Shown here: in pieces, positions 491 through 56,669 of the stretch
Layout: each line of letters opens with the position of its first letter
How positions within the stretch are numbered: the stretch's first letter is position 1
Assembly (NCBI GenBank): GCA_938027655.1
Contig: CALJAP010000021.1
Span: forward strand, 15,879 to 79,878
Reading direction: 5' to 3'
Length of the DNA stretch: 64,000 nt
Source: an uncultured bacterium
GTDB lineage: Bacteria > Armatimonadota > HRBIN16
Translations under genes and position numbers: made by a program
The notes under the pieces: generated by a model
The model's database searches: none
What the model was told of the DNA's origin: nothing
The model's input: only the letters and a program-made list of their open reading frames with translations

Positions 491-2380
491 ATGGTAGTAG
501 ACGCGCCTCGAGGCACTGCAGAAACCAGGGTAACGAACATCGCACAGCTGGTGGTGATAGGGATAGTGTCACTGGCTGTCGTAGCGGCAGTTCTTGGCTT
601 GTTTTATCGCGCCCGTTTTACGGGTCCTACAGACGAGGCGATGGACTATGGACAAATAGCTTACAACCTGTCTAAAGGACGCGGTTTTGTGACCAACAAC
701 ATTGTACCTCTCGGGCTATATTTCTGGGAGGACGTGCGCAAGGCGTACGACCTTGAACACGGTCCCGCCTATCCAATGTATTTGGCTCTTCTCCTGTACA
801 GGGGCACGCAGGACAGCACTCTCGCGCTGGGTTCAATGATATGGTTCGTGCTCAGTCTGATACTGGTGTATTTTGTGGGCAGCCGTCTATTCAGCCGACG
901 GGTGGGGTACTGGGCGGCGGCGTTACTTCTTTTGGCAGAGGGCGCGCTGGCATGGCTTGCCATTTCGGGGCTGCCCGCAGCGATGGCGGGTTTCTTGCTG
1001 TTAGCTGCTTGCTATTTGCTGTATCGTCCCAGCCGGGAGGAGCTGGACCCCCAGTCGGGGCAGGTTATCGTGGTCTGGGAGGAACGAACCCCACGGCGCA
1101 GCTTCTGGGCTGGTGTTGTGGCAGGGTTGGGGTATCTCACGCAGTTATCGTTGTGGCTGCTGTTGATACCCGCTACCATCTACCTGATGATTACCAACCC
1201 AGAGCATCGCAGAAAGCATGTGCTGTTGTTTCTACTGGGCTTTGTGCTCATCAGTCTGCCGTACTGGATACGCAACGCGCGCCTGTTCGGCAATCCGTTC
1301 TTCAACCTGCGAGTGTACGAAGTGGGAATGGCAATCAAACCGTACCCGGGGTATTCGCTGTATCGCCGTTATGAAGCGGGCGGCCGTCCCCCCGGGGTTA
1401 CCGCGCTGTTCATGGAGAACGCCCAGCAGGTACTGGGCAAGTGGTCGCGCAATCTGCGCAACGGCATCGGCGCTCTGCTCACGTTCCCCCATCCGGTTAT
1501 CACCGCTTTGGCGTTCGCAGGACTGTTCATCCCGATGCGCCAGCGTGCGCTGGCGCTGTGGCGCAACATGGTGTGGTGGACGGCGATACTGGTGCTTATA
1601 GCATGTTCGTTCGGGGTGCCCGGTGCGAATGTGTTTGCGCTGTACTGTTTTGCGGTGCCCTTCAGTGTGCTGGCGGTGGGCACGCTGGAGGATTTGACAC
1701 AGGCTTTATTCGAGGATGCCCGGCGCGTGTGGCGGTGGGGAATAACGGGCGTCCTCTTGATAGCGTTCGTACCGCTGGCGTTGACGCTTGTTTTTAGAGA
1801 GCCCATAGAGACACGCGAGGAGTTGATGGCGTTTAGAGTCATCTCCCAACGGTTGGACACGGTGCTTGCCGACATGAAACAGCGCAACCCAGCCAGTAGC
1901 CTGCCGACACCCGTTGTCGGTATCAGTGACGTGCCCTGGCGTGCTGCGTGGTATACCCACCATGTGTGGGTGTGGTTGCCCGAGACCCCGCTGGTGGAGG
2001 TGCCTGTGGAGGTGGGGGAAGGGCAGAACAAGTTCAAAATCAATCAGCCCTTGCCCAACATGGGCGCAGTCAAGGAAGTGCTTCAAAAGGTACAGCCCAT
2101 ATTCGCCATCATCACGCCGGCGGTCGGCGGAGCACCGGATGGGGAGCGACTGCAGGGATGGGTTAATCATTACAACACGGCGTCGCAGTTTGTCTTCCAA
2201 TCGTATTTTGTGCGTGACCAGAAGCAGGCACAACAGCTATCCCAGGCGTGGAAGTCACGAAGACGTGCGCCATATGACCCGGTGATAGGCGGGGTCTATC
2301 CGATGCCGCAGGCATCCCGTGCACGCGTCGTTCGCGACCTCGTGCCGCCGCGCTATATCCTGTTTATCTTCGCGCCTTAA
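491..2380 (+). CDS. GT39/PMT_2-family (ArnT/Pmt-like) membrane glycosyltransferase
   Basis: 629-aa multi-pass membrane protein. The N-proximal motif DEAMDYGQIAYNLSKGRGFVTNNI matches the DE..Y...A.NL..G.GY signature of PMT_2/ArnT glycosyltransferases. RBS GGAGGAA precedes the ATG. Confidence 0.55.
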   Translation: MVVDAPRGTAETRVTNIAQLVVIGIVSLAVVAAVLGLFYRARFTGPTDEAMDYGQIAYNLSKGRGFVTNNIVPLGLYFWEDVRKAYDLEHGPAYPMYLALLLYRGTQDSTLALGSMIWFVLSLILVYFVGSRLFSRRVGYWAAALLLLAEGALAWLAISGLPAAMAGFLLLAACYLLYRPSREELDPQSGQVIVVWEERTPRRSFWAGVVAGLGYLTQLSLWLLLIPATIYLMITNPEHRRKHVLLFLLGFVLISLPYWIRNARLFGNPFFNLRVYEVGMAIKPYPGYSLYRRYEAGGRPPGVTALFMENAQQVLGKWSRNLRNGIGALLTFPHPVITALAFAGLFIPMRQRALALWRNMVWWTAILVLIACSFGVPGANVFALYCFAVPFSVLAVGTLEDLTQALFEDARRVWRWGITGVLLIAFVPLALTLVFREPIETREELMAFRVISQRLDTVLADMKQRNPASSLPTPVVGISDVPWRAAWYTHHVWVWLPETPLVEVPVEVGEGQNKFKINQPLPNMGAVKEVLQKVQPIFAIITPAVGGAPDGERLQGWVNHYNTASQFVFQSYFVRDQKQAQQLSQAWKSRRRAPYDPVIGGVYPMPQASRARVVRDLVPPRYILFIFAP

Positions 2381-2384
2381 TACG

Positions 2385-2700
2385 TGCCATACACGATTAT
2401 TGGGGTATGAGCGGAGCAGTTCCGCTTTCCTGTGATTCTAAGCGAAGCGAAGAATCTCGTGTTAACGACAGGATGAGATGCTTCGCTTGCGCCCAGCATG
2501 ACAAAATAGGCTGAAAAGCGTCTGCGTAGTCTCCCCACCATCGAAATGGTGGGCACTGGTGAGGAGAAACCTGTCTCCACACTCCGTTCAATTCGCGCAG
2601 GCGGATTTTGCTTCCCTCATAGCCCGTGATTTCAATCGTGGGGTTCAGCATGGTGAAGACGTAAAACCACCTTGCCTGCATCCAATAATCACGTGTGAGG
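2385..2700. repeat. Dispersed intergenic repeat, copy A (MITE-like, about 315 bp, with terminal inverted repeats)
   Basis: Left end ACACGATTATTGG and right end CCAATAATCACGTGTG are inverse complements. The internal blocks GGAGCAGTTCCGCTT, GATTCT-loop-AGAATC, GATGAGATGCTTCGCT, CAGCATGACAAAAT and ATGGTGAAGACGTAAAACC recur at 31440-31590 and 56375-56565. Confidence 0.6.
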
Positions 2701-2731
2701 CTCTAATAGCGTTTGCGACTACAGATTAACT

Positions 2732-2766
2732 AATGGCAAAAGTGGGACGGGCGTGAAGCCCGTCCC
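2732..2766 (-). terminator. Putative intrinsic terminator of the groESL operon
   Basis: Stem GGGACGGGC-gtgaa-GCCCGTCCC. On the minus strand it is followed by ACUUUUGCCAUU, directly after the groEL stop. Confidence 0.45.
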
Positions 2767-2793: not shown

Positions 2794-4404
<1,611 letters not shown>

Positions 4405-4823: not shown

Positions 4824-4906
4824 GGGTTTAGATGGGTCGTTCGGTTTCGCAGGCTCGTATCTCGAATCGGTTTGCAATCGCTTCGTTCCCATGCTTTAGT
4901 GTTCTG

Positions 4907-6016
4907 CTATTTCTCCAGCCATGGGGCAAGGAAGCGGCTGTGTACTGCTACGCGCTCCCCCGTTTCTGCCGATTTCTGCGCAGCAAGCATGACCTCCAGC
5001 ACATGAAAGGCGTGCTCGGCAGTCATCAAAGGCTTTTCACCGGTGGCAAGGCATCGCGCCAGATACGAACCTCCCTGATTCCAGTTATAGCCCTTCTGGT
5101 CTTCGCAGACCACCTTCCACGCGCCCGCCTCGGTATCCCACACCTCCACGCCTTTGGGGTGCCAGTCCCATCCCAGCATATTGATACTCCCTTTTGTGCC
5201 AACCAGTTCGATAGTGCGCTCCTCATGGTAGGGACCGTATACGAAGCCCGTCATCACACACGAGAAAACGCTGTTACCATGGTCCATCAGCACGATAGTG
5301 TTATCGTCGGCTTCCACCTTGACATGCTGTCCTTCCACAAATCGTTCTTTGATGGCGGTTCCCATCAGCGCGGTAACGCTTTCGGCAGGGCCGAGTAGCC
5401 CGGTGAGTGTGGTGATATTATAAACGCCCAGGTCAAACAGGCATCCCCCGCCCTTCCGGTAAAACCAGGGTCCCCAGCCGGGTCCGCCGTGCCCGTACCA
5501 CGCTCGGGCGACGTATACGTCACCTACCGCCTTCGCCGCCAGCAGTTTCGCCATGCACTGGAACGCCGGACTGGTGACCACCGTCGGCGCGCCCCAGAGG
5601 TAAACGCCGTGTTGTCGGGCGGTTTCTATCAGCGTGCGCCCTTCCTCCAGTGTGGTGGCAAACGGCTTTTCACACAACACGTGTTTGCCTGCCTGTAGTG
5701 CCTGCAGATTAATCGGATAGTGCTGTTGCATGGAGGTCAGGTTAATGAGCATGTCGAACTCACATTGGCTGAGCAGGTGCTCCACGTCGGTGTACACCTG
5801 TGGTACACCGAACTGCTCCGCGCGTTCGCGAGCACGGGCTTCCTTGACATCACACACAGCAACCACCCGTGCGTGTTTGCTGGTTTTCAGGTCATTCAAG
5901 TAATGCCAACTCACGCTGCCGCATCCTGCGATGGCGATGCGGATCACAGACATGTGTACCCTCCTGACATGGTTCGCCTGCGGTGCGACCCGCGGTCGTA
6001 CCCTTAGATTCGCCAT
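4907..6016 (-). CDS. Gfo/Idh/MocA-family NAD(P)-dependent oxidoreductase
   Basis: Rossmann N-terminus IRIAIAGCGSVSWHYL followed by the C-terminal alpha/beta domain typical of this family. Confidence 0.7.
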   Translation of the reverse strand: MANLRVRPRVAPQANHVRRVHMSVIRIAIAGCGSVSWHYLNDLKTSKHARVVAVCDVKEARARERAEQFGVPQVYTDVEHLLSQCEFDMLINLTSMQQHYPINLQALQAGKHVLCEKPFATTLEEGRTLIETARQHGVYLWGAPTVVTSPAFQCMAKLLAAKAVGDVYVARAWYGHGGPGWGPWFYRKGGGCLFDLGVYNITTLTGLLGPAESVTALMGTAIKERFVEGQHVKVEADDNTIVLMDHGNSVFSCVMTGFVYGPYHEERTIELVGTKGSINMLGWDWHPKGVEVWDTEAGAWKVVCEDQKGYNWNQGGSYLARCLATGEKPLMTAEHAFHVLEVMLAAQKSAETGERVAVHSRFLAPWLEK

Positions 6017-6115
6017 GCATGTGCCCCCGCCCTCTTGCCAGATAGTGGGTTTTTGTGTTAATCTGTATCACCGCAGGTGACATCAGCCGGAACGGGCAGG
6101 CGAGGAGCGTCAGCG

Positions 6116-7051
6116 GTGGCATTCGTCGAAACACACAACCTGACCAAAAAGTACGGTAATCTGGTAGCGGTGAATAATCTGAATCTGCGCCTGGACGAAG
6201 GGGACATTCTCGGCTTTATTGGACCCAACGGTGCAGGCAAGACCACGACCATCCGGATACTTGCCACCCTGCTGGAACCGACGAGCGGTACCGCTACCAT
6301 CGCAGGGCACGACGTGGTGAAGGAGCCGGAAGCGGTGCGACGGATTATCGGCTACATGCCCGACTTTTTCGGCGTGTACGATGATGTGAAGGTGTGGGAG
6401 TATCTGGACTTTTTCGCGTGCGCCTACCGCGTGCCTCGCTCGGAGCGGGCAAAGCTGATCGATGATGTGCTCGCGTTAACCGACCTGTCGCATAAGAAAG
6501 ACGACTACGTGGAAGCGCTCTCGCGCGGAATGAAGCAGAGGCTATGCCTTGCCAAAACCCTGCTGCACAACCCGCAGGTGCTGTTGCTGGACGAACCGGC
6601 ATCGGGCTTGGACCCACGCGCCCGCATCGAGATAAAAGAACTGTTGAAAGAACTGCGGAACATGGGCAAGACCATCCTTATCTCCTCGCACATTCTGCCC
6701 GAACTGGCGGATATCTGCAACAAGATTGCCATCATCGAGCGCGGAGAACTGCTCATCAGCGGCGAGATCGATACCATCATGCGCCAGCTGACCGGCTCGC
6801 ATGTGCTGGAGATCAAGGTTGCCGACGATGAGGAAGCCGCCGTGCAGGTGCTGCAGAACCAGCTGGAGGACATCCGTGAGGTGCGGGTGGAGGATGGGGT
6901 TATTCGGGCGCACTATGTCGGTCCCCCAGGCGAACACTACCGCGTGGTGTGGGCACTGGCTGAAAAACGGGTAAAGGTGCTCTCCTTTGCCGAGCAGCCT
7001 ACCGACCTCGAAGACATCTTTATGCGCGTCACACAGGGAGTGGTGCAGTAG
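6116..7051 (+). CDS. ABC transporter ATP-binding protein (ABC-2 type)
   Basis: Walker A GPNGAGKTT, LSRGMKQRL signature and Walker B LLLDEP. The start is probably GTG at 6116, with GAGGAG 7 nt upstream. The ORF track extends the frame to 6077. Confidence 0.85.
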   Translation: MAFVETHNLTKKYGNLVAVNNLNLRLDEGDILGFIGPNGAGKTTTIRILATLLEPTSGTATIAGHDVVKEPEAVRRIIGYMPDFFGVYDDVKVWEYLDFFACAYRVPRSERAKLIDDVLALTDLSHKKDDYVEALSRGMKQRLCLAKTLLHNPQVLLLDEPASGLDPRARIEIKELLKELRNMGKTILISSHILPELADICNKIAIIERGELLISGEIDTIMRQLTGSHVLEIKVADDEEAAVQVLQNQLEDIREVRVEDGVIRAHYVGPPGEHYRVVWALAEKRVKVLSFAEQPTDLEDIFMRVTQGVVQ

Positions 7052-8469
7052 TGATAGAACGACTGGAGAACCCCGTTTTTCGACAATCCTCGCGTCAAAG
7101 GATGCGCGGCGCGCGGACGTATGGCTGTCTGTTGGCTTACCTGCTGGTGCTGGGGCTAGTGGTTATTATCTCATACGACCAGTTTGTAGCGCATGGAGTA
7201 CAGCGCACCACCACCGGTTTGGCGCAGATGCTGTTCGGTACGCTCGCGATGACCCAGTGGTTTCTGGTGGCTTTTATAACGCCGGCTCTCACCACCAGCG
7301 CGATCACGATGGAGCGCGAGCAGCGCACGTACGACCTGTTGATGATGACACCCCTTTCCCGTTTTACCATCGTGTGGGGCAAGTTCGCTTCCGCGCTGGC
7401 GTTCACGGTGGTGATGATTGTGTGTGGGATGCCACTGGTAGCGGTGCTGTTCCTGATGGGCGGCGTAGACGTTGGCTTAATGCTCACCCTGTACCTCGGT
7501 ATGCTCGCTACCGGAGCGGTGCTGGCAGCGTACGGTCTGATGATGAGTACAATATGTGCAACCTCCACCCTAGCAAACCTGCTCACTTACGGCAGTCTGG
7601 CAGTCGGGTACTTTGGGGCTGCTGTTACTGGGACGGCTTATACGCTCAGTCGGGCGTTCGGGGGCGGTTCTTTCAACATGTTGTGGCTGGGCGCCGGTTT
7701 GACCTCCTGGCAGATGTGGACTTTCGTGGTGTTAACCCTGCTTCTTACTGTTTGGCTGTTGTTGCAGATAGCCAGCAACTATCTGCTTGCCGACCCCCGT
7801 GCGGGAGCGTGGAAGACTCGATCGCTGTTGATTGCGTTGTATCTGCTTATTCTCGTTGCTACCCTCCTCGACGCACAAGCGACAACTCGCACCTCCGCCT
7901 CAGCCAATTATCTGGGTGGACTGTTCGCGTTCTTGTGGGCATTGGTGATTCCTGCGTTGTTCACGGGGGTTCCTTACGGCAGCAAGAAGTGGTATGAGTG
8001 GCTGTACCCAAGTAGTCTACGGGTGGGCGCGATACAGAGCGCGTTGCCCTTCATGTGTCTCATCGTGCTCACGGCGATTGTGGCAGACCGTTTCATGCCC
8101 GCACCGTTGCGCACACAGCCGCTCGTCTGGGCATATGTCATGGGCTACTTCTGCTGGATTTGGTCACTGGGCTACCTGTTGTCGTTTGCCATCCGAAACC
8201 GGTGGGGCGCGCTGTTCGCACTGGTCGGTGTTCTGGCGGTGCTTGTGCAGCTCATCTCCACGGTCAGCATAGTGGACGCCAACAGAGGCGGGCAGCAGCG
8301 GTTTGAATTGCTGCTAAACGTGGCGTTGCCGATTGCTCCATGGGAAGCCAGCGGTAAGATGGACTATCGGATATGGGTGGTGTTGTATCCGCTGATGGCT
8401 ACGGCGAGCCTACTGCTGACCGGTTGGCTTCGCAGATTCCGGAAGAGCGCGGTGACGGAAGGCTCATGA
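7051..8469 (+). CDS. ABC-2 family transporter permease
   Basis: 472-aa multi-pass membrane protein. Its GTG start overlaps the ATPase stop (TAGTG). Confidence 0.7.
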   Translation: MIERLENPVFRQSSRQRMRGARTYGCLLAYLLVLGLVVIISYDQFVAHGVQRTTTGLAQMLFGTLAMTQWFLVAFITPALTTSAITMEREQRTYDLLMMTPLSRFTIVWGKFASALAFTVVMIVCGMPLVAVLFLMGGVDVGLMLTLYLGMLATGAVLAAYGLMMSTICATSTLANLLTYGSLAVGYFGAAVTGTAYTLSRAFGGGSFNMLWLGAGLTSWQMWTFVVLTLLLTVWLLLQIASNYLLADPRAGAWKTRSLLIALYLLILVATLLDAQATTRTSASANYLGGLFAFLWALVIPALFTGVPYGSKKWYEWLYPSSLRVGAIQSALPFMCLIVLTAIVADRFMPAPLRTQPLVWAYVMGYFCWIWSLGYLLSFAIRNRWGALFALVGVLAVLVQLISTVSIVDANRGGQQRFELLLNVALPIAPWEASGKMDYRIWVVLYPLMATASLLLTGWLRRFRKSAVTEGS

Positions 8470-10123: not shown

Positions 10124-11677
10124 ATGCAAAATCTGGGAGTGAACCCCAGCCGGTATGGGCTGGAGATGCACGGGATTAAGGATGCAAGGGTAGCGCTGTG
10201 GAATCTCGGCACTGCCCAGCTGATAGAGTACAGCTTAAGCCAGCAGGAAGGTGTGCTGGCATCAGGGGGCGCGCTGGTGGTGCGTACCGGGCAGCACACC
10301 GGGCGTTCACCACAGGACAAATTCGTCGTTCGCGACCCCGACGTTGCCGACAAAATCTGGTGGGGGTCGGTAAACCAGCCGTTCGAGCCGGAGAAGTTCG
10401 ACGCGCTTTACAAGCGAGTGCTGGCGTACCTGCAAGACAAACGCCTGTTTGTGCAGGACTGCTTCGTGGGAGCGGACGAGCGTTATCGCATCCCGATTCG
10501 TGTGGTGACGCAATATGCGTGGCACAACCGGTTTGCCCGCCAGCTGTTCGTTCGCCCTGACTGGACAAAAACCGGTGAGCACAAGCCGGAGTTCGTTATC
10601 GTGTCCGCGCCCGGTTTTCACTCGGACCCAGAGACAGACGGCACGCGGTCGGGGGCGTTCATCATTGTCAACTTCACCAGACGAATCATCCTCATCGGCG
10701 GCACCGAGTATGCCGGTGAGATGAAGAAGTCCATCTTTACGATTATGAACTACCTGTTGCCCGAACAGGGCATACTGTCCATGCACTGCGCTGCGAACAT
10801 GGGACCGGGAGGCGATGTGGCGCTGTTTTTTGGGCTGAGCGGCACCGGCAAGACCTCCCTTTCTGCGGACCCCGAGCGACGCCTCATCGGCGACGATGAG
10901 CATGGCTGGAGCGATGATGGTGTCTTCAACTTCGAGGGCGGATGCTATGCCAAGTGTATTCGTCTCTCGAAGGAGAACGAGCCACAAATCTGGAACGCCA
11001 TCCGCTTCGGCGCGGTGCTGGAGAACGTGGCGATCGATATGCAGACACGCTTACTGGATTTCAACGATGCCAGCCTTACCGAGAACACCCGCGCGGCATA
11101 CCCGCTGAGTTTCATCGAGAACGCGGTCATCCCCAGCGTAGCAGGGCATCCGAAGAACGTGTTCTTCCTGACCTGCGATGCCTTCGGCGTGTTGCCTCCG
11201 ATTGCCCGCCTCACCGAAGAGCAGGCGATGGAACAGTTTCTGCTGGGCTATACGGCGAAGGTAGCAGGTACCGAAACCGGCGTCACCGAACCGCAGGCGA
11301 CCTTCAGCACTTGCTTTGGCGCTCCCTTCTTGCCGTTGCCGCCAAAGACATACGCCAACCTGTTAGGCGAACGCCTGCGCAAGCACAAGGCGCAGGTGTG
11401 GTTGGTGAATACCGGCTGGACAGGTGGTCCCTACGGAGTCGGACATCGAATCAGTATCCCATATACACGAGCGATGGTGCGCGCCGCGCTGAAGGGCGAA
11501 CTGGATGACGTGGAATACCGCTTAGACCCCGTGTTCGGCTTGCGTGTGCCGACGGTGTGCCCGGGTGTCCCTTCCGAGATACTGGACCCGCGCCAGACGT
11601 GGCAAAACAAAGAGGCATATGATGAACAGGCTCGCAAGCTGAAAGCGATGTGGGACGAGCAGATGAAGAAGATATAA
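10124..11677 (+). CDS. pckA: Phosphoenolpyruvate carboxykinase (ATP)
   Basis: 517 aa, with kinase-1a motif GLSGTGKTS and ...RSPQDKFVV.... Strong RBS GGAGAGGAGGA. Confidence 0.92.
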
Positions 11678-31439: not shown

Positions 31440-31590
31440 GACAGGACGAGGCTCTTGCTGAGTGGAGCAGTTCCGCTTGCTGTCATTCTGAAGAATCTCG
31501 GTATCGCGATGGATTGAGATGCTTCGCTATCGCTCAGCATGATAAAATGGATTGAAACGCCTTTTCGGGTCAGAACACGTATATCCAAAG
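31440..31590. repeat. Dispersed intergenic repeat, copy B (short form)
   Basis: GAGTGGAGCAGTTCCGCTTGCTGTCATTCTGAAGAATCTCG...GATGAGATGCTTCGCT...CAGCATGATAAAATGG matches the core of copy A. Confidence 0.55.
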
Positions 31591-35544: not shown

Positions 35545-36711
35545 TTACCGTTCTGCCTGCAAGAGCGGTGGCTCAACATGCGTATTCTCAGGGGCTGTCT
35601 CGTGCCCGCTCTCGACCATATCCTGAACGAACCTCTTTCGCAGCACATCGACAGGAAACATCGTCCCCTCCCGCTTATCGTAAAAGTACCAGTGCTCCCA
35701 TCCATTGCAGGGAGCTCCTGTAATCAGGCGACCCATCTGGTGGATGGAGCCTTGCTCTTTGCCCATGCGGATATGTCCGTTCGCCAGCACCGTTGCCTGC
35801 AGCTCTCTCTTTGCCTGAAAGAACAGTGTTTCCCCCGGCGCGATGTAGCCGTTCTCCACCAGTGCCCCGAAGGGCACTCTCTTCGTTTTGTGGACTGGCG
35901 TTGATGCAGGTTCTATGGCTTCAAACAAGACAGGCAGCACCCGGTCAATACGCTCTCTGGCGACGGCGACATAACGCGGGTCGCGCTCGATGCCTATCCA
36001 GTTCCTGTGCAGGCGTTTGGCAACTGCTCCGGTGGTACCCGTACCGAAGAACGGGTCGAGTACCACATCACCTGCGTCCGTGCTGGACAGGATGACCCTG
36101 TACAGCAACGCTTCAGGCTTCTGGGTAGAGTGCGCTTTCTCCCTATTGATACGGATTCGCTCGCTTCCTGTGCAAATGGGGATGCACCAGTCGCTGCGCA
36201 TCTGCAAGCCATCGTTCAGCGCTTTCATGTCGTGATAGTTGAAGGTGTACTTCGCGCCCTTCACCTTCTGCGCCCAGATGAGCGTTTCATGCGCGTTCGC
36301 AAAGCGTACCCCCCTGAACTGCGGCATCGGGTTGGTCTTCACCCACACGATGTCGTTCAGTATCCAGAAGCCCAGGTCCATCAGAATCTTACCGATTCGG
36401 TAGATGTTGTGGTAGGTTCCGATGACCCAGAGTGTGCCTGTGTCTTTCAAGACGCGCCGCGCGGCGGACAGCCATGCTTCGGTAAACCGGTCGTAGTCGG
36501 CTAGGCTCTGGAACCTGTCCCATTCGTCGTCCACGCCGTCCACAACGGTCATGTTGGGGCGGTACAGCTCCTGACGAATCTGCAAGTTGTACGGCGGGTC
36601 GGCGAAGACCATATCCACGCACCCCTCCGGCAGACCCTGCATCACCTGTATGCAGTCGCCCACCAGTATCTGGTTCAGCGGTAATCTCGCCATGTTTGTT
36701 TCCGTATTCAT
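35545..36711 (-). CDS. ccrM: CcrM-like N6-adenine DNA methyltransferase (beta-class; GANTC specificity predicted by homology)
   Basis: DMVFADPPYNLQ (motif IV) and VLDPFFGTGTTGAVAKRL (motif I). The roughly 90-aa C-terminal extension ...GSIHQMGRLITGAPCNGWEHWYF... is characteristic of CcrM. No cognate restriction endonuclease lies nearby. Confidence 0.8.
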   Translation of the reverse strand: MNTETNMARLPLNQILVGDCIQVMQGLPEGCVDMVFADPPYNLQIRQELYRPNMTVVDGVDDEWDRFQSLADYDRFTEAWLSAARRVLKDTGTLWVIGTYHNIYRIGKILMDLGFWILNDIVWVKTNPMPQFRGVRFANAHETLIWAQKVKGAKYTFNYHDMKALNDGLQMRSDWCIPICTGSERIRINREKAHSTQKPEALLYRVILSSTDAGDVVLDPFFGTGTTGAVAKRLHRNWIGIERDPRYVAVARERIDRVLPVLFEAIEPASTPVHKTKRVPFGALVENGYIAPGETLFFQAKRELQATVLANGHIRMGKEQGSIHQMGRLITGAPCNGWEHWYFYDKREGTMFPVDVLRKRFVQDMVESGHETAPENTHVEPPLLQAER

Positions 36712-38534: not shown

Positions 38535-39131
38535 ATGGCAGCTTTCTGGCGCCGGTGGCTAGGGCGCAAGCAGGTTGTCCTCTCTTTGGGCAAAGGTGCG
38601 GAGATCCGCCAGCTGACCCTGCAAGATGCTCCGGCGTTGTTCGACCTGACCGTGCGCAACCGCGAACGCTTGCGTCGCTGGATGAGCTGGGTGGATTTCG
38701 TGCGCAGTGAGGAGGATACGCGGGGCTTTATTCGCGAGTCGTTACGCAAATTTCGTTCAGCACGCAGCCTGCAGATGGGGATATGGTGGAACGGTAGCCT
38801 GGTAGGTACGGTTGGGCTGTTTCGCACTGCCAGCGCGGAGCAGGAGGCGGAAATCGGCTACTGGATCGATGAGGCGGCAGAAGGACAGGGGTTGGTAACC
38901 CGCGCCACACGAGAACTGGTTCGTTACGCCTTTGAGCAGTGGCAGGTGCCGGCGGTGCGCATTCGTGTGGAGCCCGAAAACGTCCGCAGTCGCGCTATCC
39001 CTGAGCGGTTGGGCTTTCGCCTGCGCGGGGAGGTAACAGAGGACTGGGCGGACGGCAGCCAACGCACTTTGCTGATATATGTGATGCGTGTCTCCGAGTT
39101 TCATGATCAGCACACAGAAGAACACGGGTGA
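38535..39131 (+). CDS. GNAT-family N-acetyltransferase (RimJ/RimL-like)
   Basis: GTVGLFRTASAEQEAEIGYWIDEAAEGQGLVTRATRELVRYAFE. The start is probably ATG at 38535 (RBS GAGGGAAGGG). The track ORF begins upstream at 38301. Confidence 0.75.
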   Translation: MAAFWRRWLGRKQVVLSLGKGAEIRQLTLQDAPALFDLTVRNRERLRRWMSWVDFVRSEEDTRGFIRESLRKFRSARSLQMGIWWNGSLVGTVGLFRTASAEQEAEIGYWIDEAAEGQGLVTRATRELVRYAFEQWQVPAVRIRVEPENVRSRAIPERLGFRLRGEVTEDWADGSQRTLLIYVMRVSEFHDQHTEEHG

Positions 39132-39160
39132 GACGGATTGATGCGGATTGCCCAACCGTC

Positions 39161-39456
39161 TTCATCCGTATGCTATTTCCCGGAAGGACACGGATTGACA
39201 CAGATGAGACGAATTGGCACAGATACTATCCGTGTTCATCCGTTGCATCGGTGTTTATCCGTGTGCTATTTCCCGGAAGGACACGGATTGACACAGATGA
39301 GACGGACCGGCACAGATACTGTCCGTGTTCATTCGTTGCATCGGTGTTTATCCGTGTGCTATTTCCCGCAAGGACACGGATTGACACAGATGAGACGGAG
39401 CGGCACAGATACTATCCGTGTTCATCCGTTGCATCGGTGTTTATCCGTGTGCTATC
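39161..39456 (+). repeat. 93-bp tandem direct repeat, about 3.2 copies, each unit a strong hairpin
   Basis: Unit TTATCCGTGTGCTATTTCCCGGAAGGACACGGATTGACACAGATGAGACGGACCGGCACAGATACTGTCCGTGTTCATTCGTTGCATCGGTGT contains the stem ATCCGTGT/ACACGGAT. Copies are 90-95 % identical. Confidence 0.85.
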
Positions 39457-39475
39457 AAGCCGTGAGGAGGTTCTC

Positions 39476-39856
39476 ATGCTACACAAACAGTTGACCAACA
39501 AAATCATCGCTGCATTCTACAAGGTGTACAACACACTGGGGTACGGCTTTCTGGAAAAAGTGTATGAGAACGCGCTCGCCCACGAGCTGCGTCAGCAAGG
39601 TTTGGATATACGTCAACAGATGCCTATCAAAGTGTATTATGACGGTCAGGTGGTAGGAGAGTATGTCGCTGATTTATGCGTAGAGGGATGCGTGATCGTG
39701 GAGATTAAAGCGGCAGAGTCGTTATGTCCTGAGCACGAAGCACAGCTGCTCAACTATCTGAGAGCCACCGAGATAGAAGTTGGATTGCTGTGCAATTTTG
39801 GTCCGCAACCTGTATTCGCTCGAAAAATACTCACCAACGACAGAAAAGAAACCTAA
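39476..39856 (+). CDS. GxxExxY protein (PD-(D/E)XK-like small protein, TIGR04256-type)
   Basis: GYGFLEKVYENAL matches the GxxExxY motif. The product is 126 aa with a strong RBS GGAGG. Local GC is below that of its surroundings. Confidence 0.7.
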   Translation: MLHKQLTNKIIAAFYKVYNTLGYGFLEKVYENALAHELRQQGLDIRQQMPIKVYYDGQVVGEYVADLCVEGCVIVEIKAAESLCPEHEAQLLNYLRATEIEVGLLCNFGPQPVFARKILTNDRKET

Positions 39857-40805: not shown

Positions 40806-43109
40806 TCAGTACGCCCACCCTCCGCCTGTCTCCAGCGACTGCCCGAACTGTCCGATGCCAAACCTCTGCACCTCGTGGAAGGCTTTGATGCGTAGGCGGA
40901 AGATCACCTCGCGGTCGGCACGGAAGCCCAGCGGGTTGTCGATATACCCTACGCTCAACTCCCAGCAGTGCAGGTCCCACGTCAGCAGGAGCTGCCTGCC
41001 CTCAAAGCGATTCACGTAGCCGTTGTAGGTGAGAACGGTCTGCACGCGCAGGGGCATTCGGAATATCTGCGTGTCCAGCCAGAGGTTCGCGCTCGCCCAG
41101 CGGTGGCGGATGGGGTCGTACACTCCGTTCAAGTTCATCGAGAAGGGGGCGGTGCGGGCACGCAGGTATGCACGCAGATAGTTCCACTGCCCCTCGTTAA
41201 GGTTCAGCGTGGATTGCACATTCAGCTGCCATGCGGGGTTCGGTTGCCACAGCACGCCCAGGTTCAACGGCTGCCAGGGGCGGCTGCCACGCTGTCGGGC
41301 AAAGAGGTCGTAGCCGGTATACGCCCGGACGGATAGAGCGCGGCTCGCGTTCCACTCCAGCCCCGCCGAGGCGAAGTTCGTGGCGCCAGTATACTCCGTG
41401 CGCAGGGGGGTAAATCCATACGGACGCAGATAACGGTAGTTCATATACCATCGGCTGTTTTGCCCGAAGCGCAGCTGCCAGTCGGAGTTACCTTGCAGGA
41501 TATACTGGGCGGTTCCATCGCTGGTAAACACCTGTCGGAAGAGGGCGGAGGTGCTCAACGAGCTTCTGCCTCCGCTGGAGGTGGTAGGGGTCCAGCGGGC
41601 TTCAAACAGCACACGCTGAATCGGATTGCCCTGCGGCAGCTCGCGGAAACTGCCCAGCCCCAGCTGCATCTGTAGTCCCATCTCCTTACCGAACAGACGG
41701 CGGTCGGTGGTAGAGAGGAGCAGCTCGGGCGTTTTTTCGATGCCGCCGAAGGTGAAGCCTCCCGTCTGCCCACCGATGGGGATAATCCGGTTGAAGGCGA
41801 GGCTCCAGTCAAACTTGCTACTGCTGCCGCTTAGTGAGGCTTGCGTGGCGAGCTGTTCTTGCTCGGAGCGCACCTCCCCGCCCGATTGCGAGCGGAAGCG
41901 CGACAGGTCGGTAGAGAAGGTCAGCGAGGCGCGCGTGCCCCAGCGTTGATTCCATCGGAGTGAACTGGTGGAGGAATCGGTAGAATAGCCCGCACTGCTC
42001 TGCTGGCTGAGACGCGAGAGAAGGGACAGGTTGCCCGACGACCACGCCCGGCTCAAGCTCACCTGCCAGCTGGATGCACGGGTATCCGAGTAGTACAGAT
42101 AGCTTCCCGAACGCAGGTCGCCAGTAAGCCGTGCGTTAAAGCCCAGCAGTTGCTGTTCATGGCGCAGCTGCGCGGTGACGGAGCGGGTAGCGCGACTGCG
42201 GTCGTTCAGGTAGTAGAACGAAAGGAGCCCGGCAGCGCCCTTCCAGAGATACTGCTGGTCGACGCCCAATCCGATACCCTTTTTCTGCATCAGGTCAATG
42301 CGCGCCGTGCCCGCGTTGTCGCCCAGCAGGTAGCCCAGCGCGGTCTTCACATAATACCCCTCTTCCACCGACTGCCCGACCTGCGGCAGGGTACCACGCG
42401 AGAGGCGTCTGTCCAGCGGCACCACCAGCGTGGGTAAGGTAAACAGTTTGCGACCCAGCGCATTCAAGCTGACCGCTCGTGCTACCAGACGCTTATCCAC
42501 CACCACGTCCACGCTGCGGGTGGAAAAATGGTAATGTGGGTGCTCCAGCAAACAGGTAGTCGCCTCACCGTGTTGCATCTGGGCATGCTGTTGCTCTCCT
42601 TGCAGTTGCTGCCCGGACAGACGCACCGCACCACGCAGCTGATTTTTGAGAAACTCGGGCAGGAGGTCTGCGCTCGCGCCCTGCATCTGCCACGAGCGTC
42701 GGCGCACATTCAGGCGAAGCATCTCGCCACGTGCGTCCATTCCACCGCCCTCCAGAGTGACCCTGCCCTGAAACAGGTACTCGCCCCTGTCCAGATTGCC
42801 TTCCACGCTTTCTGCCTGAATGGTGTACTCGCGCCAGCGGGCGAGGATGTCGCTCGCCAGCAGGTTGTTCTGGGCGTCCAGAAAAAGGGTGCCGAACCGC
42901 TCGACATCCAGTCGTTCCACCCTGCGCGAGATGGCTTCGGCAGGTGGTTGCGGTTGTTGGGCGAGGGCAATGCCACTATAGAACAGCAGGAGGGTGAGGA
43001 AGAGGGGGAGGAACCTAACCCCCTGTCCCCCTTCCCTACAAGGGAAGGGGGTGCTTTCTGCGCGGCTCCCCTCTCCTCGTAGGAGAGGGGTCGGGGGTGA
43101 GGTCATCAT
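40806..43109 (-). CDS. Outer-membrane beta-barrel protein, possibly LptD/OstA-like
   Basis: The signal-like segment FLPLFLTLLLFYSGIALAQQ follows an odd 30-aa N-terminus. The protein is 768 aa, beta-rich, and ends in an aromatic residue (GGGWAY). ATG ATG at 43109 has RBS GGAGGTGA. The track ORF runs upstream to 43547. Confidence 0.4.
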   Translation of the reverse strand: MMTSPPTPLLRGEGSRAESTPFPCREGGQGVRFLPLFLTLLLFYSGIALAQQPQPPAEAISRRVERLDVERFGTLFLDAQNNLLASDILARWREYTIQAESVEGNLDRGEYLFQGRVTLEGGGMDARGEMLRLNVRRRSWQMQGASADLLPEFLKNQLRGAVRLSGQQLQGEQQHAQMQHGEATTCLLEHPHYHFSTRSVDVVVDKRLVARAVSLNALGRKLFTLPTLVVPLDRRLSRGTLPQVGQSVEEGYYVKTALGYLLGDNAGTARIDLMQKKGIGLGVDQQYLWKGAAGLLSFYYLNDRSRATRSVTAQLRHEQQLLGFNARLTGDLRSGSYLYYSDTRASSWQVSLSRAWSSGNLSLLSRLSQQSSAGYSTDSSTSSLRWNQRWGTRASLTFSTDLSRFRSQSGGEVRSEQEQLATQASLSGSSSKFDWSLAFNRIIPIGGQTGGFTFGGIEKTPELLLSTTDRRLFGKEMGLQMQLGLGSFRELPQGNPIQRVLFEARWTPTTSSGGRSSLSTSALFRQVFTSDGTAQYILQGNSDWQLRFGQNSRWYMNYRYLRPYGFTPLRTEYTGATNFASAGLEWNASRALSVRAYTGYDLFARQRGSRPWQPLNLGVLWQPNPAWQLNVQSTLNLNEGQWNYLRAYLRARTAPFSMNLNGVYDPIRHRWASANLWLDTQIFRMPLRVQTVLTYNGYVNRFEGRQLLLTWDLHCWELSVGYIDNPLGFRADREVIFRLRIKAFHEVQRFGIGQFGQSLETGGGWAY
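43015..43095. repeat. Two adjacent REP-like palindromes (CCCCCTTCCC-tacaa-GGGAAGGGGG and CCCCTCTCC-tcgta-GGAGAGGGG)
   Basis: Perfect 9-10-bp GC stems. A third copy, CCCCTCTCCC-tgtg-GGAGAGGGG, lies at 45861-45885. Confidence 0.6.
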
Positions 43110-43114
43110 CGGCT

Positions 43115-44809
43115 TCACTGCCTCACCTCCCTCTTGCGCTGGGCGGCGCGCATGTTCAAGGTGAGCAGCACGGTAAAGAACAGCGTGTAAAACGCCGCGA
43201 TGCTCCACCGCGAAGGAGCAGGTAACGCCATACTCGCCCATGCCGGGAGTGCTAGCAACCGAACGCTTTTGTCCACCGTCCACGCGCTCAACGCTATTGG
43301 GGCGCAGAGCAAGTCGGGCAGCCAAGGTAGGCACGCTGCCACCAGCCCCGCGCAGGTAAGCACCTGCACCGGCATGGCGATAACAAGGTTGGCTATGGGC
43401 GCAATCAAGGACATTTGACCATAGTATAACGCGGTCAGCGGGGCGGATGCCAGCGTGCAGATGACACTCAAGCACACGACAGCGAGGATTGCTCGCAAGG
43501 GGCGCAGTCTGTCGCTTGCCGCGCCTGTGGCGATAGCCCCGGTCCATCCTGCCGAAGCCACTATCGCAGCCACCAGCGTAAACGAGAACTGAAAGCTGGG
43601 GTCACGCAGTGCGCCGGTGTCTGACAGCACAATCAGGAACCCCGCCAGCGCGAGCGAGGTTGGCAAGTCGCCCTCTCGTTGCAGAGCAGTGGCTCCTGCG
43701 ATAAGCGTGCCCATGATGGCGGCGCGCAAAGAGGGGTCTCCACCTGCAGCCACTCCTGCGAACAACCAAATAACCAGTATAACCGCCAGCGCAGAAGCCT
43801 TGCGTGACAGGTTGGCAAACCGGCATATCGCCCACACCGCTATCGCCAGCATCGAAACGTGCGTTCCCGATGGCGAGAGGATATGTACTGTGCCGGTACG
43901 CCGGAAGTTTTCGCGAATGGCATCGTCCAGTTTTACACGGTCGTTCAGCACAATTGCAGCGGCGATGTGTCCTTCGCGCGTGGGCAGATGGAGGCGCAGG
44001 TTGCGTATCAACATCCGGCGCAAGCGCGAGAAGAGAACGCTCCAGTGCGGTTGGGGCAGGTGCTGGATGCGGTATGGACGCAACGTTCTGGAGATGCCTT
44101 GCCTGCGCAGGTATCGCGCAAACGATGCGTCCGGGTCTGTCGGCGTGGCGGAGGGCATCCGTAACCTGCCCTCCAGGTGCACACGTTCACCCGCGAATAC
44201 GTTGTCTACCAGCGTTTCCGGCACATGCACCCACAGACGCACCGGCGTGCGAATGGTGCGGTGTGCAGTAACCAGGCTTTCTGTGCGCAGGACAAACCGC
44301 CATGTACCCGCTTTTCGGGTCGGCTCTGTGGTCACCACGCCGGTAGCCGCCACCACCTCGTCGCGGGGCAGGGTGCGCCAGAGCAGGTCATCGCGGTAGG
44401 CGTAGCGAATGCCCTGTGTTGCGCCCAACCACAGCGCCAGCACACTCAACAGGGCGGTTGTTGCGGAAAGCAGCCGATACCGCTGGAGTAGCCATCCGCC
44501 AGCGGTCAGGAGCAGACATCCCTGTATCACCGGCAGGGGAGAAAAGGTCACGCCTGCGGCAGCTCCCGCCAGGTAGCCGCCGCAGAAAGTTGCCAGCGGT
44601 CTGCCGTTGACCGCTTGAAACCGTTTGCGCCACCTCTTCTCAAAGGCTGCAGATTGCATCCGTGCCCGCGCTCCGGCGTAGTGGTTCGTTATACCGCTTT
44701 CTCTGAAGGGCGTCATGTTCCTGCCGTACCGTTTGGGACAGGAGAGGGTTTCAGTCCCAGTGCGCGCCCGACAGATTGCCCGCACAAAAGGAAAATCCCC
44801 CTCCTGCAT
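43115..44809 (-). CDS. comEC: ComEC/Rec2-family DNA internalisation channel protein (no beta-lactamase domain)
   Basis: Polytopic membrane protein with the competence domain motif ILSPSGTHVSMLAI. Confidence 0.6.
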   Translation of the reverse strand: MQEGDFPFVRAICRARTGTETLSCPKRYGRNMTPFRESGITNHYAGARARMQSAAFEKRWRKRFQAVNGRPLATFCGGYLAGAAAGVTFSPLPVIQGCLLLTAGGWLLQRYRLLSATTALLSVLALWLGATQGIRYAYRDDLLWRTLPRDEVVAATGVVTTEPTRKAGTWRFVLRTESLVTAHRTIRTPVRLWVHVPETLVDNVFAGERVHLEGRLRMPSATPTDPDASFARYLRRQGISRTLRPYRIQHLPQPHWSVLFSRLRRMLIRNLRLHLPTREGHIAAAIVLNDRVKLDDAIRENFRRTGTVHILSPSGTHVSMLAIAVWAICRFANLSRKASALAVILVIWLFAGVAAGGDPSLRAAIMGTLIAGATALQREGDLPTSLALAGFLIVLSDTGALRDPSFQFSFTLVAAIVASAGWTGAIATGAASDRLRPLRAILAVVCLSVICTLASAPLTALYYGQMSLIAPIANLVIAMPVQVLTCAGLVAACLPWLPDLLCAPIALSAWTVDKSVRLLALPAWASMALPAPSRWSIAAFYTLFFTVLLTLNMRAAQRKREVRQ

Positions 44810-45683: not shown

Positions 45684-45860
45684 CTCCTATCGAAATGTGT
45701 TCTCGCCCTTAATTTAATGCAAAGTCTGTACCAAAGGTGCTGGGCAAAATACGGGTTGTTGGCATAGTGCGGCAGAAAAACGGCAAGATTGCTGTCAGTA
45801 AACTTGCGGGGAAACCCGTTGCAAAAGCTGGTCTAACGATGATGAAAGCAGGAGCATCTC

Positions 45861-45885
45861 CCCTCTCCCTGTGGGAGAGGGGACG
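45861..45885. repeat. REP-like palindrome CCCCTCTCCC-tgtg-GGAGAGGGG downstream of ggt
   Basis: Same stem sequence as the palindrome at 43063-43085. Confidence 0.55.
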
Positions 45886-45917
45886 GGGGAGAGGTTACAA
45901 TCAGATTCTTCGCTGTG

Positions 45918-47480
45918 TTACCACCCCGCCGCGTGACCGTCACAGCGGGGGTCGGAACCGGCAAGGAGCGCCTTGCTTTGGGGATGCACCGCAATCACCT
46001 GCACCGCTCCCGATTGCCCCCAGTCGGGTAACAGCAGCACGCGATGCCCCTTGCGCTCCAGCTTTTGCAGGGTCTCCATCGGCGTGCGACGCTCGACTTT
46101 CAGCCCTTCCGGGTCGTGCTGCCAGCGGGGGGCTTCCACTGCCTCCTGGGGGTTCATGCCGAAGTCTATCAGGTTGCAGATAATCTGCGTGTTGCTCTGT
46201 ACCTGCACATCGCCACCCGGCGTGCCGCCCACGAAAGCCAGTTCGTCGCCGCGCGTCAGCAGGTAGGCGTTGAGGGTGTGCGCGGTACGCTTGACCGGCT
46301 CCAGCGCGTTGGGGCTGTTGGGGTCTAACGAGAAGCCCGTCATACGGTTGTTGAACAGGATGCCCGTGCCTTCCGCTACCTGCATACACCCAAAAGAGTG
46401 GAAGATGCTCTGGATAAAGGAGATGGCGTTGCCGTAGCGGTCCACGACGCAGAAGTAGGTGGTGTCATGCTCAATCTCGCCGGCGGTGACGCGGTCGGCG
46501 GCGCGGTTCAGGTCTATCTGCTGGCGGCGTCGCTCTGCATACCCTTTGCTCAGCAGAACGTTCATCGGCACGTCCACAAAGCGCGGGTCGCCAAGGTAGG
46601 CGTGCCTGTCCGCGAAAGCGAGTTTCTTCGCCTCCACCTGCAGGTGGATGACCTCCGCGCTGAGCGCGCCCATACTGCGCAGGTCGTAGCCCTCCAGCAG
46701 GTTCAGCATCTGCGCGAGGATATGTCCTTGTGATACGGGCGGTTGCGCGTGCAGGGTGTACCCGCGGTACTCCACGCGAAGCGGTTCCAACCACTCGGCG
46801 GGCGGCTGCGCGAGGTCCTCTTCCGTACACAGTCCCCCGTGGTGCTGGCAATGACGCACGATGCGCTCGGCAATCTCGCCCCGATAGAAGTCCATCGGTC
46901 CGGCGGTGGCGATGCGGGTCAGCGTCCAGCCGAGGTTCGGCTGGGTGACCATCTTGCCCGGGTAGGGTAGCTCCCCGTCAGGCACCAGCTCGCGCCAGGT
47001 GATGGGGAACTGTCGCAGCAGGTGCTCATGCGCAGCAAACACCTGACTGTAACGGTAGCCGGCGGGAAACCCCTGCTGGGCGTAGCGGATAGCGGGCTGG
47101 AGCAGTTCCGAAAGCTCACGGGTGGCGTATCGCTCGTGCAAAAGCGCCCACGCAGATACCAGCCCGGGTACCGACGCGCTCTGCATACCGCGTGCAGGGA
47201 TACCGTCGTGGAAACGCTCGCGTGTCGCCGCACGCGGGGCAGGACCGGAGGCGTTGAGCGCATGCGTCTGACGTGTGCGGGCGTCGTACACTATCACAAA
47301 AGCGTCTCCACCGAGGTGGCTGTTGTAGGGCTCGATCACCGTCAGCACCGCGCTGATGGCGATCGCGGCATCTACGAAGTTACCACCTTCCTGTAGCACA
47401 TGCAGTCCCACTGCCGTTGCCAGCGGTTGAGAGGTTGCCACCGCCCCGTTTCGGGCAACCACGACGCCACGATAGGTCAT
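45918..47480 (-). CDS. ggt: Gamma-glutamyltranspeptidase
   Basis: 520 aa, with the autoprocessing-site region ...TTYFCVVDRYGNAISFIQS.... Confidence 0.85.
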   Translation of the reverse strand: MTYRGVVVARNGAVATSQPLATAVGLHVLQEGGNFVDAAIAISAVLTVIEPYNSHLGGDAFVIVYDARTRQTHALNASGPAPRAATRERFHDGIPARGMQSASVPGLVSAWALLHERYATRELSELLQPAIRYAQQGFPAGYRYSQVFAAHEHLLRQFPITWRELVPDGELPYPGKMVTQPNLGWTLTRIATAGPMDFYRGEIAERIVRHCQHHGGLCTEEDLAQPPAEWLEPLRVEYRGYTLHAQPPVSQGHILAQMLNLLEGYDLRSMGALSAEVIHLQVEAKKLAFADRHAYLGDPRFVDVPMNVLLSKGYAERRRQQIDLNRAADRVTAGEIEHDTTYFCVVDRYGNAISFIQSIFHSFGCMQVAEGTGILFNNRMTGFSLDPNSPNALEPVKRTAHTLNAYLLTRGDELAFVGGTPGGDVQVQSNTQIICNLIDFGMNPQEAVEAPRWQHDPEGLKVERRTPMETLQKLERKGHRVLLLPDWGQSGAVQVIAVHPQSKALLAGSDPRCDGHAAGW

Positions 47481-48169
47481 TCGCCCGGCTCCTTTCCCCG
47501 TTGCAGTTCCGCCTCCAGCGCGCGCACACGGGCTTCCAGTTCCGCTGCCTGTTCGGCGAGCTCCATTGCGGTCGGGATGGCACGTCCTTTCGTGGGATCG
47601 TAGAGCCGCACCTTATATCCCTCATCCTCTGCCCGTACCACGATGGATAACCCCAGCCGCTCGCTATGAGCGCGCCACTCACGGTCGTTCGGTCGCTCGT
47701 TGGGAATCCGCTGGTACTCATGCCCAACCAGGCGGTGCAGCATCACAGGCTCTATGAGGTAATCGCGTGTGACATCTATCAGGATGTACTCCTTCACGCC
47801 CAGTCGTTGGTAGAGCCGGTATTTCCTGCCCAAATCCTCCGGTGCGGTAGAGCGGGAGGTCAGTTCGAATATCACATCCGGCGCTTTGCCCATCTCCCAC
47901 ACTTTCCACGTGGGGCGCCAGGGGCGTTTAGGCACTCCGAATGCCACATACACATCGGGAGCAACGCGCTGAGAGGGGTTGCCCTCAATCCAGTACATGA
48001 ACTGATTACCCGCTACATACACATCTTCGCGCCCGGCGAAGTACCGCATCAGCGCGTCCAGCAGATACAGCATCGCTTCCAGATGTTCAGGCGTCTCTGC
48101 CATTGGCTTCCCATCCGACACAGGATAGCGTACGCTTTCTATTGCCTGCGAGATTGCCATCGGCATCAC
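47477..48169 (-). CDS. Uma2-family (DUF820) putative restriction-endonuclease-like protein
   Basis: YVAGNQFMYW...APDVYVAF...APDVIFELTS...EYILID (PD-(D/E)XK). Coiled-coil C-terminal tail. Confidence 0.75.
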   Translation of the reverse strand: MMPMAISQAIESVRYPVSDGKPMAETPEHLEAMLYLLDALMRYFAGREDVYVAGNQFMYWIEGNPSQRVAPDVYVAFGVPKRPWRPTWKVWEMGKAPDVIFELTSRSTAPEDLGRKYRLYQRLGVKEYILIDVTRDYLIEPVMLHRLVGHEYQRIPNERPNDREWRAHSERLGLSIVVRAEDEGYKVRLYDPTKGRAIPTAMELAEQAAELEARVRALEAELQRGKEPGE

Positions 48170-48847: not shown

Positions 48848-48954
48848 CTCTCCAGTACGGTTCGCCGAAGTGTGAGGAAAAGCCTGCAGGCAACGCGGAT
48901 AGTCATCGGGCGTTCGGTGTTGGAATCTTCCCGCTAGTGATTCACCACACGTGA

Positions 48955-56565: not shown

Positions 56566-56669
56566 AGGGTTTACTTTCTGGTATGCAACTTCGAGGCAAG
56601 GGCAGGACACTGTGCCCTCAATGCCCAACTCGATAGCAGCATGAACGCTACGACGAAAGGGGAACAGCA

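Follow-up and report, generated by a model that had tools for sequence, protein, structure and literature searches.

The described systems closest to the repeat analysed here differ in size, host and proposed mode of spread. Bacterial miniature inverted-repeat transposable elements (MITEs) include the Correia/NEMIS elements of Neisseria, for which a TA-targeting DDE enzyme has previously been proposed, and Nezha of cyanobacteria. Among the much shorter repetitive extragenic palindromes (REPs), a CGTC/TGTC-tagged superfamily includes Neisseria dRS3 and Rickettsia RPE-4 and RPE-6; a published survey lists no tyrosine transposase flanked by CGTC repeats and no dedicated transposase for them (Di Nocera, De Gregorio and Rocco 2013, PMC3733652). 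REPINs are doublets of short palindromes that are mobilised by REP-associated tyrosine transposases (RAYTs; Bertels and Rainey 2011, PMC3116915), and Bpu is a 36-nt interspersed hairpin repeat of Cycas and Ginkgo mitochondria with about 500 copies in Cycas, where its consensus is AAGGTTATCCCTTTCCTGAGCGTAGCGAAGGGAAGG (PMC8297867). We analysed a 64,000-nt stretch (the window) of contig CALJAP010000021.1 from an uncultured Armatimonadota bacterium of the HRBIN16 lineage (assembly GCA_938027655.1), in which an inspection of the sequence alone, hereafter the original prediction, had proposed three copies (A, B and C) of a MITE-like repeat. We find a single full-length element, at site A. Most likely it is a parasitic mobile element, small and of a type already known, neither a gene nor a new RNA, and it carries a short hairpin that recurs in several phyla.

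Site A is the sole full-length element in the window and spans about 335 bp at positions 2378-2712 (plus strand), bounds that were set by alignment with three copies in bacterium HR16 (GCA_002898895.1, BEHS01; L053, L190 and L191). A profile search with nhmmer matched 2381-2709 with E=2e-114. At its outer bounds the element reads TA followed by ATACGTGCCA on the left, and GGCTCTAA followed by TA and then GCG on the right. The predicted inverted repeats are real, comprising 16-nt arms at 2388-2403 (CATACACGATTATTGG) and 2682-2697 (CCAATAATCACGTGTG) that are 81% complementary, but they are subterminal rather than terminal, as similarity among copies runs 10-14 nt further on both sides. Across the family, the end motif is CCACACRTGATTATTTGG, with similarity extending another 5-10 nt outward. 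The inverted ends measure 16-17 nt in A and about 26-28 nt in L053 and L191; both are conserved in these three copies, and the left arm is degenerate in L190. Similarity stops at a TA at 11 of the 12 element ends, and this TA may represent the element's own terminal bases.

Internally, element A is a mosaic of separable modules. The left inverted repeat (2388-2404, CATACACGATTATTGGG, plus strand), a motif also found at the left end of L053 and L191, is followed by a small hairpin, AGCGGA-gcagt-TCCGCT (2410-2426, plus strand), which is conserved in the same two copies and occurs in B as well. Next comes a doublet of two inverted 23-27-nt hairpins around a conserved 15-16-nt spacer. Unit 1 (2431-2458, plus strand; TGTG ATTCT AA GC GAA GC GA AGAAT CTC) is a TGTC-tagged, REP-like hairpin with ATTCT/AGAAT arms and a GNA loop; the spacer, found conserved when doublets were aligned, occupies 16 nt in A (2459-2474, plus strand); and unit 2 (2475-2503, minus strand; TGTC ATGCT GG GC GCAA GC GA AGCAT CTC) is inverted, with ATGCT/AGCAT arms and a GNNA loop. 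A linker (2503-2529, plus strand, AAAATAGGCTGAAAAGCGTCTGCG), common to B and most long copies, leads to a palindromic core of ~110 nt (2533-2643), identified from self-complementary nhmmer matches and consensus folds, in which a pair of small hairpins, at about 2566-2583 and 2590-2607, lies between inverted 22-nt hairpin arms (2533-2554 and 2622-2643). The element closes with a 3' tail (2644-2698, plus strand) that contains the invariant ATGGTGAAGACGTAAAACC and the right inverted repeat (2681-2697). Core plus tail measure ~175 nt and are lineage-specific. The conserved blocks quoted in the original prediction, GGAGCAGTTCCGCTT, GAGATGCTTCGCT, CAGCATGAYAAAAT and ATGGTGAAGACGTAAAACC, are all present as described there.

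To compare site A among strains, we retrieved four metagenome contigs (L001-L004) by exact look-up of the GroEL protein and aligned them with the window by blastn. Hot-spring samples ERZ6863514, ERZ6864144, ERZ6863697 and ERR9287617 contain these strains. The filled allele of the window (2378-2743, plus strand; 366 nt) is replaced by 14 nt in all four strains, which are near-identical to the window in the flanks (99.4-99.8%). In L003 the flanks are 99.8% identical up to window position 2744 and 99.4% identical from 2377 downwards, and the short form recurs in L001, L002 and L004. In the window, the PMT_2 gene on the left of A takes its stop codon from the first three bases of the extra stretch, which shortens the protein end from the ...APQ* of the short form to ...AP*, and on the right the original GroEL terminator hairpin (2744-2767) is intact. 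Next to the divergent last ~35 nt of PMT_2 (described below), identity to the window is just 95% over 170 nt in L001 and 89% over 84 nt in L002, and strain-to-strain exchange appears to have a hot spot at this gene end. We also observed that L002 (5832-9574) matches window 4827-7593 at only 83% over ABC transporter genes despite an identical GroEL protein, and that it has an additional 319-aa gene before groES; the strains are therefore mosaics.

Copies elsewhere were sought by several routes. Scanning one genome per species with a 17-mer gave 67 matches where ~69 are expected by chance, and only two loci, both in bacterium HR16, were real; blastn and nhmmer confirmed them as true copies. A 19-mer scan of metagenome contigs likewise gave only two real loci and added L073. 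In viral sequences, matches to a 19-mer of the core fell either within phage coding sequence or in an unrelated hairpin, and nhmmer dismissed them. When the element was translated in both orientations and compared with a protein collection, it matched 16 short predicted 'proteins', three of them HRbin16 hypothetical proteins, and the contigs encoding them yielded loci L078-L087 and L190-L196. Four of these contigs (L084-L087) start within the element, as expected since repeats break assemblies; repeats of this family interrupt metagenome assemblies of this hot-spring lineage. The HR16 copy L053 is 82.5% identical to A over 326 nt, both inverted ends included, and lies among unrelated genes. 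Together the three full-length HR16 copies (L053, L190, L191) are about 82% identical to A over that length. Both ends are present in A, L053, L191 and, with its degenerate left end, L190; further copies (L055, L073, L078, L083, L192) also have unrelated neighbouring genes. Searches of plasmids and cultured phages with the whole element returned no similarity. As a separate observation, a DNA methylase gene adjoins the copy in L073, and the window itself encodes a DNA methyltransferase with a RAMA domain (35545-36711) and a putative endonuclease of the Uma2 family (47477-48169).

The modules also occur solo or in other orders. Doublet, spacer and linker (AAAATAGGNTGAAAAG) recur in A, B, L053, L073 and twice in L078, where one doublet stands alone (10944-11014), as it does in B. 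The core, about 90% conserved between genomes, occurs without a doublet in L083 and with doublets downstream in L078. The whole unit, in turn, is present or absent between strains, and its loci are unrelated across the genomes that carry it, at least two related ones and those of several metagenome populations.

We consider the best explanation for A to be a non-autonomous, MITE-type mobile repeat moved in trans, with a probability of roughly 0.6. The filled and empty forms of site A, the dispersed full-length copies, the inverted ends and the non-coding sequence support this half of the original prediction, which had offered a non-autonomous mobile element and a small RNA family as alternatives. 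Such an element would spread as DNA with the help of an enzyme whose gene lies elsewhere in the genome. In the case of the complete element, this enzyme may be a TA-targeting DDE transposase of the IS630/Tc1-mariner-like kind, a proposal based on the inverted ends of 17-28 bp and the TA at 11 of 12 ends. The hairpin doublet would more probably spread by a hairpin-recognising route like the one put forward for REP/REPIN elements. The element probably serves no purpose of its own at site A, and for annotation, the ~335 bp between GroEL and PMT_2 are best treated as a dispensable repeat, not as a gene or regulatory RNA.

Several observations weigh against this assignment. The insertion is not clean: the last ~35 nt of PMT_2 (2343-2377) differ from L001-L004 at 8 of 38 positions, and window positions 2712-2743 are neither family sequence nor a clear match to the empty-site allele. 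Import of a diverged haplotype by recombination, or deletion in the other strains, fits the polymorphism equally well; an old insertion is compatible with it too. No target-site duplication is demonstrable, the empty alleles being too diverged at the junction. The very large collections yielded only about a dozen distinct copies in total. Finally, the search for an autonomous partner came back empty: none of the about 50 genes in the 64-kb window, which are ordinary housekeeping genes, encodes a transposase, and none adjoins any of the fetched copies.

The other two sites in the window hold fragments. Local alignment matched A 2408-2526 with B 31459-31567 (72% over 119 nt, E=3e-15; nhmmer E=6e-18) and A 2644-2714 with C 56504-56572 (80.6% over 72 nt, E=2.6e-11), and it found no same-orientation similarity between B and C, which have only the short hairpin motif in common. 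Since similarity to A is confined to its left third in the case of B and to its last ~65 nt in the case of C, the window contains one full element and two unlike fragments instead of three copies of one element. B (31459-31567, plus strand) is a solo left module of 110 nt, delimited by alignment and nhmmer, that comprises the small hairpin, doublet and linker and lacks both the inverted ends and the core; its unit 1 (31481-31499) has lost 10 nt of the apex, and its unit 2 (31516-31544) is inverted. C (56504-56566, plus strand), delimited in the same way, is the last ~63 nt of the element, with the 3' tail, the right inverted repeat (56542-56558) and the terminal TA (56565-56566). Beside it, at 56444-56499, lie two degenerate hairpin units, TGTCATACTGAGCACAGCGAAGG (plus) and GAGATTCTTCACCGGCACTTAGAATGAC (inverted, with its apex replaced). 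The prediction of a hairpin that keeps its stem and varies its loop holds at all three sites: the hairpin is complete in A (GATTCT-aagcgaagcga-AGAATC), and its apex is deleted in B and replaced in C. The C fragment is unchanged in L088, the one other strain contig found; exact-protein look-ups for PMT_2, the DUF6785 protein, the debranching enzyme and the 94-aa open reading frame (ORF) returned no records, and no other allele of site B was recovered. One solitary match to the inverted-repeat motif (CACACGTGATTATTCAG / CACACGTGATTATT; 48946-48962, plus strand) lies in a ~400-nt intergenic gap between KDPG aldolase and DUF4838 genes. With ~0.2 exact 14-mers expected by chance, it may be a remnant or a chance match.

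All three sites are intergenic, as predicted, and B and C do lie at gene starts: B separates a DUF6785 gene from a divergently oriented gene for a glycogen debranching enzyme, and C is in the divergent region between a 105-aa ORF and a GH38 mannosidase gene. A, however, sits between the stop codons of the convergent PMT_2 glycosyltransferase (491-2380, plus strand) and GroEL (2794-4401, minus strand) genes and is therefore not adjacent to gene starts.

The short hairpin of the doublet has a much wider distribution than the composite element. The unit measures 23-27 nt, TGTC-ATTCT-GA-GC-GNA-GC-GA-AGAAT-CTC, with a 5-bp stem, tandem G-A/A-G pairs, two G-C pairs and a GNA triloop; more generally, the loop follows GNA or GNNA. 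Its full stem, ATTCTGAGC/GCGAAGAAT, has nine positions, opens with A-T and then T-A, and contains the tandem G-A pairs internally. The apex sequence GCGNAGC is reportedly an exceptionally stable DNA mini-hairpin (Hirao and colleagues). In the window the unit occurs at 2431-2458, 2475-2503 and 31516-31544, and elsewhere we found it at loci L089-L181, L189 and L197-L199. The pattern CATTCTGAGCGNAGCGAAGAATC, with 22 specified bases, has 113 exact matches in 93 viral-contig stretches with G+C contents from 32 to 69%. The head of 122 perfectly paired units is TGTC in 105 and CGTC in 10, and TGTC in 9/11 units of the window and HR16 set. All four bases occur at the variable loop position (GAA 44, GCA 42, GTA 17, GGA 17), and pairing of the arms is preserved by double substitutions (ATTCT/AGAAT, ATGCT/AGCAT, ATCCT/AGGAT, ACCCT/AGGGT, ATTTT/AAAAT). 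Beyond the head and the CTC tail, the flanks in viral contigs are not conserved.

In viral contigs, 75 of 107 units fall outside long ORFs as delimited by a simple greedy caller, in either orientation, with 16 between convergent genes and 5 between divergent genes. Many of these contigs belong to one tailed-phage group with portal, terminase and capsid genes in common. Units often lie a few bases ahead of a ribosome-binding site, and a half unit (TGTCATTCTGAGC or GTCATTGCGAGC) is often found ~28 nt upstream of a full unit. The hairpin is also carried by plasmids of Calothrix, Planktothrix, Oscillatoria, Granulicella, Hymenobacter and Phocaeicola, hosts that span Cyanobacteriota, Acidobacteriota and Bacteroidota; the Granulicella variant has a CGTC head and a fully paired stem, and on the Hymenobacter plasmid two units with ATGCT arms form an inverted homodimer. 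When the literature was searched with the exact sequence of the hairpin and with its translations, no description was found, the sole relevant match being the Bpu element. One could view the unit as a single, horizontally spreading, ultra-small mobile or enzyme-recognised DNA hairpin of several phyla, tailed phages and plasmids, spread by a conserved hairpin-specific enzyme and perhaps related to Bpu through CTGAGCGTAGCGAAG, with the composite element as one lineage's elaboration; we put this forward as a speculative idea that has perhaps one chance in several of being right. The cross-phylum hairpin is the part of the finding worth following; its sharp definition makes it a probe with which to look for the mobilising enzyme by co-occurrence.

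Of the explanations that compete with a MITE-type element, the one that survives best holds that the modules are host-maintained motifs of the kind found in bacterial interspersed mosaic elements (BIMEs) or in the NIMEs of Neisseria, acting as bidirectional terminators, mRNA stabilisers or nucleoid-protein sites and spreading by recombination or gene conversion. The shuffled module order does resemble such mosaics, the mostly intergenic hairpin units of viral contigs favour convergent over divergent gene pairs (16 vs 5) in either orientation, the literature describes no dedicated transposase for CGTC-tagged REPs (PMC3733652), and the diverged haplotype at the junction of A is a sign of exchange by recombination. 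However, a 335-bp unit with both ends recurs at unrelated loci in two genomes, for which recombination alone is an unlikely source. A terminator would do harm in the divergent promoter regions that contain B and C, a terminator scan of the element was empty, and the native GroEL terminator is retained beside A. On balance we consider this explanation unlikely.

Somewhat less probable still is movement of the element or its hairpin modules through single-stranded DNA by an HUH tyrosine transposase (a RAYT or an IS200/IS605-like enzyme), with the inverted ends as incidental basal stems. The doublet has the REPIN layout of two inverted imperfect palindromes and a conserved spacer, and its unpaired 4-nt head is conserved (TGTC or CGTC in 115 of 122 paired units), like GTAG in RAYT substrates; the reportedly stable GCGNAGC apex would suit a single-stranded intermediate, and no flanking duplication is visible. 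Against this, neither the 64-kb window nor the neighbourhood of any copy encodes a Y1 transposase, the head differs from GTAG, and inverted ends as long as those of the full element are more usual in DDE substrates. The published survey, moreover, found no tyrosine transposase flanked by CGTC repeats (PMC3733652).

We next consider coding and RNA functions. A small protein gene was rejected, as the open frames differ between copies and substitutions across the core are non-synonymous. The other half of the original prediction, a transcribed small RNA family, finds no support: under this explanation the ~175-nt core plus tail would be either a cis-regulatory RNA or a multicopy gene for a structured small RNA, with only incidental repeats around it. 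In its favour, the core is about 90% conserved between genomes and folds far above shuffled sequence (z about -5), wobble pairs in the plus-strand model run to 50 G-T vs 8 A-C, and a same-direction gene follows in 5/7 copies (C, L053, L055, L078, L083; tallied by eye). The wobble excess, however, arises because the structure was predicted on that strand, and a symmetric test favours neither strand. Folding is just as good on the reverse strand, both for single sequences (z = -4.96 and -4.97 for the two strands) and for consensus folds of nine cores (-48.8 vs -48.2 kcal/mol), and the structure is therefore a property of the duplex palindrome. Covariation is almost absent, with a double change in only 2/44 pairs and too little variation in the alignment. 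Rfam 15, including the HEARO and IS605-orfB motifs, gave no gathering-threshold match over the whole window and chance-level matches only at E<=10 over 2350-2800. One of the candidates, CRISPR-DR28, scored 21 bits against a gathering score of 35 and was set aside as chance; a hammerhead-like reading of CUGAGCG...CGAAG was rejected by inspection and Rfam. A consensus scan found no promoter or terminator match inside the element. A points into the 3' end of a convergent gene, and near-identical strains do without this copy. We see no sign of a strand-specific RNA and regard an RNA gene as improbable. Conserved promoters of paralogous genes, which the original prediction had named as the alternative that would undo it, are excluded because the six genes flanking A, B and C are unrelated by ORF lists and Pfam. 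A MITE-type mobile repeat thus remains our preferred explanation for element A.

The window also contains repeats of other kinds. A second hairpin family, CTCCCCTCTCC-nnGTnG-GGAGAGGGG followed by TCGGGGGTGAGGT, occurs at 43066-43116 and 45858-45908; it directly adjoins an element copy in the HR16 locus L055 (about 6520-6560), and GGAGAGGGG-like motifs lie near hairpin units in several viral contigs. A tandem array at 61169-61397 consists of 12 copies of a 19-nt unit (CCCTATGTGGTTGCCCCTG), a period not divisible by three. Just before the array stands GGGGCAACC, the arms GGGGCAACC/GGTTGCCCC can pair, and the array overlaps the start of a 474-aa ORF without a Pfam match. Two further arrays lie within ORFs: three tandem 93-nt units (39164-39455; 94% matches) form the 5' part of ORF 39128-39856, the C-terminal half of which is a PD-(D/E)XK nuclease domain (PDDEXK_3), and five 75-nt units (52251-52624; 25 residues each) lie inside a 385-aa ORF (51641-52798, minus strand) with weak coiled-coil-like Pfam matches only.

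How do the element and its hairpin compare with the known systems? The most distant likeness is that of the hairpin unit to Bpu, with which it shares an identical 15-nt core (CTGAGCGTAGCGAAG), complementary arms in register and the apex design GA, GC, GNA loop, GC, GA. Bpu differs in its outer arms, its AAGG terminal direct repeats and its organelle host, and we treat the likeness as a lead only, because a 15-mer text match can be chance and the design may be convergent. Like the BIMEs of E. coli and the NIMEs of Neisseria, element A mixes alternating REP-like hairpins with other short motifs in variable order; unlike them, its mosaic is bounded by inverted repeats and recurs as a fixed 335-bp unit at several loci. 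With REPINs, the doublet shares its layout as a replicating unit, an inverted pair of short palindromes with a conserved spacer, but the head is TGTC instead of GTAG, no RAYT gene was seen in the window, and the two units are consistently unlike in arm and loop.

The short hairpin fits the CGTC/TGTC-tagged REP superfamily. Common to both are the unpaired head (CGTC, TGTC or CCTC in the superfamily), a stem of 8-9 bp with A-T pairs at its start, a loop of few nucleotides and a tail of 3 nt. Both also form inverted heterodimers around a conserved spacer, lie mostly between genes and have no transposase alongside. The hairpin unit differs in its loop of 3-4 nt (GNA/GNNA) instead of 4-5, in its CTC instead of CCA tail and in the tandem G-A/A-G pair of its stem, although the published definition allows other loops and most tails, but only most, fit CCA (PMC3733652). 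Its dimers have tails facing, which is rare for CGTC repeats, and it occurs in phyla outside that survey's list (Cyanobacteriota, Acidobacteriota, the HR16 lineage) and in phage contigs; the hairpin sequence is also absent from the survey's supplements (PMC3733652).

The composite element as a whole most resembles the bacterial MITEs. It differs from Correia/NEMIS and Nezha in that few copies were recovered, no TA duplication is demonstrable, no autonomous partner was found in the window or beside the other copies and its interior is built from other repeat families instead of a decayed transposase gene. In size, lack of coding sequence, inverted ends, and dispersed and polymorphic copies, it has the features by which MITEs are recognised. 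It shares with these elements a length of 100-400 bp, non-coding sequence, an intergenic location and the potential to fold into a long hairpin, together with inverted ends of 15-30 bp, TA at the ends and presence or absence between strains.

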